Shown here piece after piece: positions 5,448 to 34,282 of a DNA stretch of 64,000 nt (position 1 is the first letter of the stretch; each line of letters opens with the position of its first letter). The notes beneath the pieces were generated by a model. That model saw only the letters and a program-made list of their open reading frames with translations, had not been told where the DNA came from and ran no database searches. The position numbers were made by a program, and so were the translations under genes. This DNA is from Escherichia phage 235Ecol030PP: sequence record PP355091.1, one strand, 5' to 3'.

Positions 5448-5988
5448 ATAAAAAATCCAAACTAGGAGAATCGTCTACAACACTTTTCTTTTCAGCCCCC
5501 GGTGTTCTATAGGTTGATTCTTCGTAATGCGTCATTTTATCGTAGATGTCTTGAATAAAAGTTTCATCTACTAACGCAACCATATCGTCGTCACGGCTGT
5601 CATAGACATTGTGAACGAAGTAACTATATTTCTTTGCAACTTCCTTACGTTCTTTTTTAATACGTTGGACGAATGCATTAAAACAAGCTTGAGTTATATA
5701 CGCATGTGGGTTTTTATATTTCGTTTCATCAAAATTATGAAGCCCCTTAATAGAAGCTTCTATACCATCTGCAATCATTTCTTGTTTCCAAGACTGGGTG
5801 TATCCTGAAAAGTTGAAACGTTTAGATAAGCCTTCTGCAATAAGCATAATGGCTAATCCGATAGTATCATTCTGACGAACTACTTTATTTGGGTCTTTAT
5901 TATTTGCTAATTCTGTTTTCCAATCAATAATAGCTTGTAAAAGCTCTTTATTGTTTACGTAATTATATTTAGGCTTAGTTTCTGACAT
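5431..5988 (-). CDS. 55: Late-transcription sigma factor gp55
   Basis: [33 protein letters not shown]... matches recalled T4 gp55; start taken at second ATG (5988). Confidence 0.9.
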
Positions 5989-6066
5989 TTTCACCTCTTA
6001 GCTCAATTCATAGATCTATTATATCATAACATTTGAAGATCTATCTTAAAGCATAGAGGATATCAG

Positions 6067-6336
6067 TTATCTAAGTAAGCAGTATGCTTGGAATACTTTC
6101 TCCATCATCTTTTTAAATTCATGAATATCTATATAATGACTAGTTAGATCAGCATGATATAAAAAGTCTAAAAACTTTTCATGTGTGCTAACATATTCGC
6201 TTTCATTTAATTCAGAAACATGGCTTTCCCAATATCCAACACCAGTCTTATTTGGGAAAAATGAAATTTTCATATATTGGTCAACATAGAAAATACCAAA
6301 ATTTTCAATAGCAATAGAAATATTAATAAATTTCAT
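6067..6336 (-). CDS. Hypothetical protein (55.x region)
   Basis: 89-aa ORF. Confidence 0.45.
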   Translation of the reverse strand: MKFINISIAIENFGIFYVDQYMKISFFPNKTGVGYWESHVSELNESEYVSTHEKFLDFLYHADLTSHYIDIHEFKKMMEKVFQAYCLLR

Positions 6337-6548
6337 ACATTCATCAACTTAGCCGCTTCAAGAGCTGCATCTAGTGAATCAAATTGGTCAACGTATTCAA
6401 TCAATTCGCCATAATTAGCGTATAACCACCATTGGCTAAATTCATACTCAAGGATGAATCCATTTCCTTCAATTTGAGTTAAACCAATGCCATTTGTATT
6501 TACTTCGTATCCGGCAAGACGCAAATCATTGATAAGAGATTCATTCAT
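6333..6548 (-). CDS. Hypothetical protein (55.x region)
   Basis: 71-aa ORF, 4-nt overlap with neighbour. Confidence 0.45.
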   Translation of the reverse strand: MNESLINDLRLAGYEVNTNGIGLTQIEGNGFILEYEFSQWWLYANYGELIEYVDQFDSLDAALEAAKLMNV

Positions 6549-31971: not shown

Positions 31972-32550
31972 TTAGGAATTACGGGCTGCATTAGCAACGG
32001 CGTAAGCGTACTGGACATTAGCGTCTTTAAACGTACCTTTAGAGGTATCTATTTCTGCCTTAAAGCCGCCTTTAGCCATAGCATCGGCAAATTCTTTACG
32101 GAAAGCCATTGCATCAAGACCTTTCCATGATGATTTATGCTTGGCAAATTCAAGACCAGCGTAGTTGACAGCCTTAGCTAATTTATTATCAATAACCCAT
32201 TTACCGGCTTTAGGCACAAACTTCGGGCCTTTTTGTTTAGAGAACAGTTTTAAATTCCAGCGACGAAGGTCACTGTCGGCTTTAACAAAAGCTGCGTCTA
32301 AGTTACTAGCAACAACATCTTCAATATGAGCAAATTTAAGTCCGTCAACTTCAATATTTAGATCGTTACGCCAGCGAAGTCCTTCCCAAGCGAAGGCTTT
32401 AAAGTCGGAAGCCTTTGTAGCTAAGTACCGTTCAATAGGAGCTGTTTTAGGGTCAAAGCCGTTTCCCGATCGGTAGGTCCACTCATCTTTATTAATGCCT
32501 TTGGCCTTTACTATAGAAGCTTCGGCAATAAATTCTTGATAGGTTTTCAT
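31972..32550 (-). CDS. ipIII: Internal protein III-like head protein (capsid targeting sequence MKTYQEFIAEA)
   Basis: 192 aa; N-terminal MKTYQEFIAEA is the classic T4 internal-protein targeting/cleavage leader; early promoter upstream. Confidence 0.75.
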   Translation of the reverse strand: MKTYQEFIAEASIVKAKGINKDEWTYRSGNGFDPKTAPIERYLATKASDFKAFAWEGLRWRNDLNIEVDGLKFAHIEDVVASNLDAAFVKADSDLRRWNLKLFSKQKGPKFVPKAGKWVIDNKLAKAVNYAGLEFAKHKSSWKGLDAMAFRKEFADAMAKGGFKAEIDTSKGTFKDANVQYAYAVANAARNS

Positions 32551-32578
32551 GTGTTTCCTTGTTTGTTTTGATAGAGTA

Positions 32579-32608
32579 ATTATACCATATTAATACTTAA
32601 GCGTAAAC
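32579..32608 (-). promoter_or_regulatory. T4-type early promoter upstream of ipIII
   Basis: -35 GTTTACG (32602-32608), 17-nt spacer, -10 TATAAT (32579-32584). Confidence 0.55.
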
Positions 32609-32611
32609 CGT

Positions 32612-32872
32612 TTAAGCTTTACCGCCAGAAATAATTCCGAAGTTGTTAAAATCATATCCAATATCGTCAACATCTACTTTAGGACTTGCTACAACATAAG
32701 CAATTTCACTACATTTTGCACAGGTGTTGATTTCTTTACCATCGCCACCTAAGAAAGAATACCCATTACGTTTTAATGAGCCAAAGTCTTCCGCATCATC
32801 AATGAAAGCTTTAACTTTAAATTTAGAACCTTTGGCATCTGCTTCAACGATAAATTCTTGATACATTTTCAT
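32612..32872 (-). CDS. Internal-protein-like gene (IPII position), CTS leader MKMYQEFIVEA
   Basis: 86 aa; leader matches IP consensus; rest unrelated to ipIII. Confidence 0.6.
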   Translation of the reverse strand: MKMYQEFIVEADAKGSKFKVKAFIDDAEDFGSLKRNGYSFLGGDGKEINTCAKCSEIAYVVASPKVDVDDIGYDFNNFGIISGGKA

Positions 32873-32878
32873 TTTTCC

Positions 32879-32982
32879 TTAGTAAATTGATTTACCAAAG
32901 TATTTGTACCAAGTCGGACGTTGATCAATTTTTTCATCTAAGCGTGCTTGATTTATCGCAATGGACGCTTCGGACGGGTCAT
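32879..32982 (-). pseudogene. denV: denV (endonuclease V, pyrimidine-dimer glycosylase) remnant: start codon plus C-terminal about 34 codons, out of frame
   Basis: Promoter, GGAGGAAATT and ATG ACC CGT (MTR) intact, stop after 9 codons; shifted frame encodes [32 protein letters not shown] matching recalled T4 DenV C-terminus. Confidence 0.7.
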
Positions 32983-33009
32983 AATTTCCTCCAAGTAGTT
33001 GATGAATGT

Positions 33010-33039
33010 ATAGTATCAAAACCCTTGGAGGAAGTAAAC
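33010..33039 (-). promoter_or_regulatory. T4-type early promoter (denV promoter)
   Basis: -35 GTTTACT (33033-33039), 17-nt spacer, -10 TACTAT (33010-33015). Confidence 0.55.
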
Positions 33040-33041
33040 AA

Positions 33042-34282
<1,241 letters not shown>

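Follow-up and report, generated by a model that had tools for sequence, protein, structure and literature searches.

The locus described here raises the question of whether a T4-like phage that has kept the beginning of its denV gene can still make the repair enzyme and, if it cannot, how the gene was lost. The denV gene of T4 encodes endonuclease V, a pyrimidine-dimer DNA glycosylase (PDB 2END/1VAS; Pfam PF03013). The window, by which we mean the whole stretch of 64,000 nucleotides that was analysed, comes from a T4-like (Tevenvirinae) phage, and the genes of its denV region are all located on the minus strand. A first reading of the locus, made from the sequence only, had described a denV gene that was internally deleted, with the promoter-like element, the ribosome binding site (RBS) and the start codon kept and ~34 C-terminal codons left in another frame, and this description was borne out by the sequence itself and by alignment with intact denV. 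The denV locus is an ordinary pseudogene, that is, a known gene lost by a known mechanism, and it very probably originated from an intact allele of the type found in phage G2133 by one 310-bp deletion between 13-bp direct repeats. The features on which the argument depends are the following.

33808..33320, minus strand: lysozyme gene e, from the ORF list
33323..33042, minus strand: 93-aa internal-protein-like gene, between e and the denV stub
33010..33039, minus strand: promoter-like element, with -35 GTTTAC at 33039..33034 and extended -10 TGATACTAT at 33018..33010
32988..32992, minus strand: Shine-Dalgarno sequence GGAGG, separated from the ATG by 5 nt and unchanged in every relative, whether its denV is intact or deleted
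32982..32980, minus strand: start codon ATG, followed by ACC CGT (DenV M1-T2-R3)
32974..32986, minus strand: deletion junction, the single surviving repeat copy AATTATGACCCGT
32953..32982, minus strand: start-frame mini-ORF, made up of ATG ACC CGT, 6 out-of-frame codons and TAA
32879..32983, minus strand: C-terminal denV remnant in the -1 frame, 34 codons (corresponding to residues 104-137) and TAA
32872..32612, minus strand: 86-aa internal-protein-like gene, directly downstream of the denV stub
32550..31972, minus strand: 192-aa ipIII-like gene, after the 86-aa gene
32570..33460, minus strand: mosaic cassette of ~900 bp, with the 3' end of e, the 93-aa gene, the denV stub and the 86-aa gene

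The denV stub and its surroundings

The 30-nt promoter-like element is identical, base for base, to a feature annotated as 'promoter' in phage Lutter (NC_054924), and the same GTTTAC...TGATACTAT layout is also found upstream of T4 denV. On the basis of this identity and of the conservation with T4, the element upstream of the stub is regarded as a putative promoter. It was absent from the list produced by a generic sigma-70 scan because it matches 8 of 12 positions, a score below the threshold of 9 that the tool requires. A one-base length polymorphism is located just upstream of the -35 hexamer (33041, minus strand; TAGTTGTTTAC versus TAG-TGTTTAC), and it segregates among deleted as well as intact alleles.

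The denV start frame halts after 9 codons, and the claim of an intact ATG ACC CGT followed by a stop at this distance was confirmed, the predicted peptide being MTRPKRPLR* (32982..32953). The claim that the C-terminus of DenV is encoded in a different frame was equally correct: the -1 frame at 32983..32879 corresponds to residues 102/104-137 of intact DenV, with E=1.6e-17 in the tblastn comparison. Altogether, the denV sequence left in the window amounts to 104 nt plus the promoter-like element.

A megablast search with window positions 32400..33500 matched 421 phage records, among which BF15 (99.8% identity) and G4498 (99.5%) were the best. The top 8 records align with this region as one piece, and from the ninth record onward the match is in two pieces, with ~309 extra bases annotated as pyrimidine-dimer DNA glycosylase. 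Since the flanks of the stub share 95-100% identity with loci at which an intact denV is annotated, the stub is in the orthologous position. The gene order in the window (e, internal-protein-like gene, denV stub, internal-protein-like gene, ipIII-like gene) differs from that in T4 (e, ipIII, ipII, denV), and the 86-aa gene starts 7 nt past the old denV stop. The window and most deletion carriers have an intact copy of this gene; in two relatives with an intact denV it is disrupted, namely in G2133 (a 177-nt CDS with a 1-nt gap) and in Lutter (two CDSs, of 126 nt and 156 nt). The three consecutive genes around and after the stub (33323..33042, 32872..32612 and 32550..31972, minus strand) have N-termini of the form MKTY(S/Q)EF... 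or MKMYQEF..., which presumably resemble the capsid-targeting leader of T4 internal proteins, and no Pfam match was found for any of the three. The window and BF15 24.4-86.6 kb are collinear (~91-98% identity), apart from several gaps or replaced segments, for instance at about 15.7-16.4 kb (76% identity), 20.9-21.4 kb, 37.7-38.2 kb and 41.8-42.1 kb of the window, and its phage is thus a distinct mosaic that is identical to no record in the phage collection.

The part of DenV that is missing in the stub comprises residues 4-103, the entire Pyr_excise domain (PF03013) included. On the intact DenV of G2133, this Pfam profile scored 50 bits (cut-off 23) over residues 1-87, and residues 1-137 of intact DenV align end to end with the structure of T4 endonuclease V (PDB 2END). 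In DenV catalysis, Glu23 and Arg22/Arg26 work together with the amino terminus of Thr2, which is the nucleophile. The stub keeps only M1-T2-R3 of the N-terminus; Thr2 is not contiguous with Glu23 and Arg22/Arg26, which are deleted, and a continuous ORF of ~137-138 codons is lacking. Because residues 4-103, with these catalytic residues and the whole Pfam domain, are gone, no glycosylase can be made.

It could be argued that something functional is nevertheless translated from the stub, by a -1 frameshift from the ATG frame into the C-terminal one or from the ORF of 46-65 aa that some records annotate as 'endonuclease', since a strong Shine-Dalgarno sequence and the ATG are kept, a 65-aa ORF with a TTG start (33076..32879, minus strand) spans the C-terminal frame, and the RASTtk-annotated records of JM17, FL18 and vB_Eco-B1.1 label a 46-aa CDS as 'endonuclease'. 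However, any product without residues 4-103 would be without the Pyr_excise domain and without catalytic Glu23, and the Pyr_excise profile gave no match to the 34-aa remnant or to the 65-aa ORF at E<=0.01. No slippery heptamer was seen within the 9 codons, and the 'endonuclease' label is a similarity-transfer annotation. Furthermore, the remnant contains two substitutions confined to deleted alleles, 32952 G>A (S114N) and 32925 C>A (A123D), and a further 1-nt deletion at the equivalent of 32935, plus a T>C change, is present in JM10 and FL12; the two amino acid changes and the 1-nt deletion indicate that there is no constraint. A functional stub is therefore very unlikely, and, judging from the changes that have accumulated in them, the denV stubs are drifting. 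When the remnant alone was used in a megablast search of the phage collection, no intact allele matched the exact remnant haplotype of the window, a result that shows only the lack of this exact haplotype in intact alleles, because the search misses most intact alleles, which share no 28-nt exact word with the remnant.

A full-length denV elsewhere in the genome, which the sequence-only reading had named as the finding that would speak against it, was present neither in the 64-kb window nor anywhere in the genome of BF15, its nearest relative. In tblastn searches of the whole 64-kb window with the DenV proteins of T4 and G2133, only the remnant was found and no second denV. The complete BF15 genome was assembled (167,801 bp) and used as a proxy for the rest of the genome, BF15 being 99.8% identical at the denV locus and ~95% identical to the window overall; here too, the remnant was the only denV sequence, and there was no second copy.

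Origin of the 310-bp deletion

Alignment with intact denV, which had been suggested together with the initial description of the locus, mapped the junction precisely. When the window and G4498 were aligned with G2133 and Lutter, in which the locus is intact, there was one gap, of 310 columns. The loss had previously been described as about 100 codons plus a frameshift, and this was right for the size but not for the division into two separate changes: 310 nt correspond to 103 codons plus 1 nt, and a single event therefore explains the deletion as well as the frameshift.

In the intact denV of G2133, the 5' repeat copy, AATTATGACCCGT, extends from nt -3 to 10 and covers the RBS spacer and codons 1-3, and the 3' repeat copy, AATTATGTCCCGT, extends over nt 307-319 (codons 103-107), exactly 310 bp downstream. 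The two copies match at 12 of 13 positions and thus form a near-identical 13-bp direct repeat. In the single copy that survives in the window, the eighth base (A at 32979) is that of the 5' copy, which places the crossover within the last five bases, CCCGT (32978..32974). When the segment between the G2133 repeats was deleted in silico, the product agreed with the window over the interval -231 to +186, counted from the repeat, except at the two remnant substitutions. No other pair of 13-mers with at most 1 mismatch exists in the gene, ~5% of shuffled sequences hold any such pair, and the chance that two arbitrary endpoints share at least 12 of 13 bases is ~1e-6.

In the origin that we propose, the parent would be an intact G2133-type allele in which repeat 1 (AATT ATG ACC CGT) lies across the RBS spacer and the start codon and repeat 2 (AAT TAT GTC CCG T) lies at codons 103-107 in another reading frame. 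Pairing of the repeats by replication slippage or short-homology recombination would remove denV nt 10-319 and, because the two copies are in different frames, the same step would delete the segment and shift the frame. The outcome would be a locus in which the promoter, the Shine-Dalgarno sequence and the ATG are kept and direct only a 9-residue peptide, and in which the C-terminal fossil is untranslatable. Deletions between short direct repeats were classically described for T4 rII deletions. The denV deletion is similar to these in that both endpoints are located in a short, imperfect direct repeat of the parent and one copy is left at the junction, and in that both possible junction products are seen among the carriers. 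Unlike the laboratory-selected T4 rII mutants, however, it is a standing polymorphism in wild isolates of two genera, and, also unlike the rII deletions, one of the repeat copies in denV overlaps the translation start, as a result of which the expression signals survive. The 13-bp repeat pair was looked for in T4 denV and is absent there, and T4 denV is therefore not prone to this deletion. In Lutter-type alleles (ACTCGT), the two copies match at only 11 of 13 positions.

A 96-nt probe across the junction, for which a full-length match in one piece was required, was found in 15 records representing 13 distinct phages (G4498, G8, BF15, Phaginator, F27, JM17, FL18, vB_Eco-B1.1, Shinka, JM10, FL12, FL23 and FL44). 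These carriers occur in both Tequatrovirus and Mosigvirus, with F27, JM17, FL18 and JM10 classified as Mosigvirus, and the sources recorded for them are manure, pig faeces and sewage, from Germany, Poland, the USA and Denmark. In IMG/VR, the junction was found in 1 contig, equal in length to G8, and the intact 3' repeat context in 2, which is too few for a frequency estimate, and a search of metagenome contigs for the junction gave 0 matches.

These records also bear on the possibility that the 310 bp were lost in sequencing or assembly, for instance by collapse at the repeat, and that the gene is really intact. The endpoints of the deletion are indeed located in a short repeat, where assemblers can occasionally mis-join, but sequencing reads are much longer than a 13-bp repeat, and the same junction is present in 13 phages that were isolated and sequenced independently in four countries. 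In addition, the stubs carry substitutions and a 1-nt indel of their own, which is expected of a replicating allele and unlike an artefact. An error of this kind is thus exceedingly improbable, and with the same junction in public records from several laboratories and countries, both chance and artefact are considered to be excluded.

Recurrence, spread and selection

The intact allele of the same type was found in ~156 records, compared with the 15 that have the deletion (roughly 9%). Across all phage records with a DenV match, 1093 of 1118 cover at least 80% of the protein, and ~25 fall below this level. In vB_EcoM_ESCO47 (OM386662.1 29628..29732), the match is restricted to DenV residues 1-35 at 68.6% identity, within a feature named 'endonuclease V N-glysidase', and its sequence suggests that this is possibly another, different truncated denV allele.

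The junctions of the carriers are not all identical. The A-type junction, GGAGGAAATTATGACCCGTCCG, was present in 12 of the carriers checked (the window included), whereas Shinka has a T-type junction, GGAGGAAATTATGTCCCGTCCG, and reads ATGTCCCGT where all other carriers have ATGACCCGT. The two types differ at exactly the one position that separates the repeat copies, and the Shinka junction is as expected if the crossover occurred in AATTATG instead of CCCGT, which would make it the alternative crossover product. The Shinka remnant otherwise shows the intact-type haplotype, and the A-type junction is found on at least 3 upstream haplotypes that also occur with intact alleles. Since both possible junction products exist, the deletion is probably recurrent, and we are inclined, with some reserve, to the view that it arose at least twice independently. 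Alternatively, a single deletion followed by an A>T point mutation in Shinka, together with the high recombination rate of T4, could be responsible for the same pattern. Linked SNPs were considered as proof of a single origin and were rejected, because no site is common to all carriers and absent from all intact alleles.

The deleted allele is part of the ~900-bp cassette, which is 94-100% identical between the window and Mosigvirus F27, JM17 and JM10, while the adjacent upstream sequence is only 46-88% identical. A sharp step in identity between the window and Mosigvirus is located inside gene e at ~33460 and represents the recombination boundary of the cassette. This step implies that the deleted allele rides a mosaic cassette that crossed the genus boundary.

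It might be supposed from this distribution that the loss of denV was selected, in that DenV would be costly or sensed in the dark gut or in sewage and the deleted cassette would have been favoured and would have spread across genera. In the more complete form of this idea, the start-overlapping repeat would be a recurrent deletion hot spot, and positive selection would act on the denV-null cassette, which would pass between Tequatrovirus and Mosigvirus in these dark habitats; if true, a repair gene would be shed repeatedly and adaptively, with the promoter left for the downstream internal-protein gene. The near-identity of the cassette in the two genera against diverged flanks, the share of deleted records within the allele type, the origin of every carrier with a recorded source from manure, pig faeces or sewage, and the independent loss of denV in T2 and T6 are all consistent with such selection. 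However, the cassette is also found with intact alleles, one example being that of Mosigvirus KAW3E185, and these alleles come from the same kinds of habitat, which means that the exchange of the cassette is not specific to the deleted form. Moreover, the great majority of DenV-matching records have retained most of the protein, and the data are accounted for just as well by a mutational hot spot together with selection that is weak in the dark. We therefore consider it doubtful that denV loss was selected, and positive selection of an exchanged denV-null cassette arising from a recurrent hot spot is improbable to the same degree.

Comparison with T4, T2 and T6 and predicted consequences

The stub is homologous to T4 denV and shares with it the promoter architecture, the RBS, the M-T-R start and the C-terminus. 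It differs from the laboratory v- mutants of T4, which are due to point mutation, in that it arose in nature, through an internal deletion of 310 bp. Compared with T4, T2 and T6 are more sensitive to UV, and for T4 v- and T2 the sensitivity is roughly doubled. The initial description of the locus had compared it to phages of the T2/T6 type, and complete genomes of T2 (AP018813) and T6 (AP018814) were assembled for the denV search. A tblastn comparison of DenV with these complete genomes gave only noise (E>4) and no denV sequence. When T2 was compared with T4, the homology was found to break in ipIII and to resume at T4 64938, one base beyond the stop codon of denV, a pattern that points to replacement of the ipIII-ipII-denV cassette. 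In T6, the segment corresponding to T4 66484..62798 (~3.7 kb; ipIII, ipII, denV and vs.8 to vs.3) is absent. In the T6 locus (5490-6507 within AP018814 55000-72000), lysozyme gene e abuts regB.

In T2 and T6, then, no denV-derived sequence is left and the block was lost or replaced, whereas the window keeps the putative promoter, the RBS, the start codon and 34 C-terminal codons. The analogy with T2 and T6 is thus valid for the class of phenotype only; it does not extend to structure, as T2 and T6 have no denV stub at all and underwent larger, different rearrangements. Taken together, at least three structural routes have led to the loss of denV in natural T-even phages, namely those of T2, of T6 and of the deletion described here.

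The phage of the window would be without dimer-specific base-excision repair, and its UV sensitivity is expected to be close to that of T4 v- or T2. Equivalents of uvsX, uvsW and uvsY, which belong to recombinational repair, are annotated in its relative BF15. Expression of the 9-codon ORF should still be driven by the putative promoter and the RBS that are kept, and transcripts should run on into the 86-aa gene. Some wild T4-like phages, among them candidates isolated for phage therapy or biocontrol, are predicted to be UV-sensitive like T2 or T4 v-, which bears on UV-based handling, on environmental persistence and on the use of such phages as surrogates in UV disinfection. These results provide a molecular explanation and a testable prediction, and they leave the understanding of DenV and of deletion mechanisms unchanged.

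In the literature that was searched, no description of this deleted denV allele was found, and the isolation paper of the G-series phages (Korf et al. 2019, Viruses 11:454; PMC6563267) names neither denV nor these phages. None of the public records checked labels the stub as a pseudogene. In these records, the stub is either unannotated, annotated as a 46-aa 'endonuclease' (JM17, FL18 and vB_Eco-B1.1) or given as a hypothetical protein.
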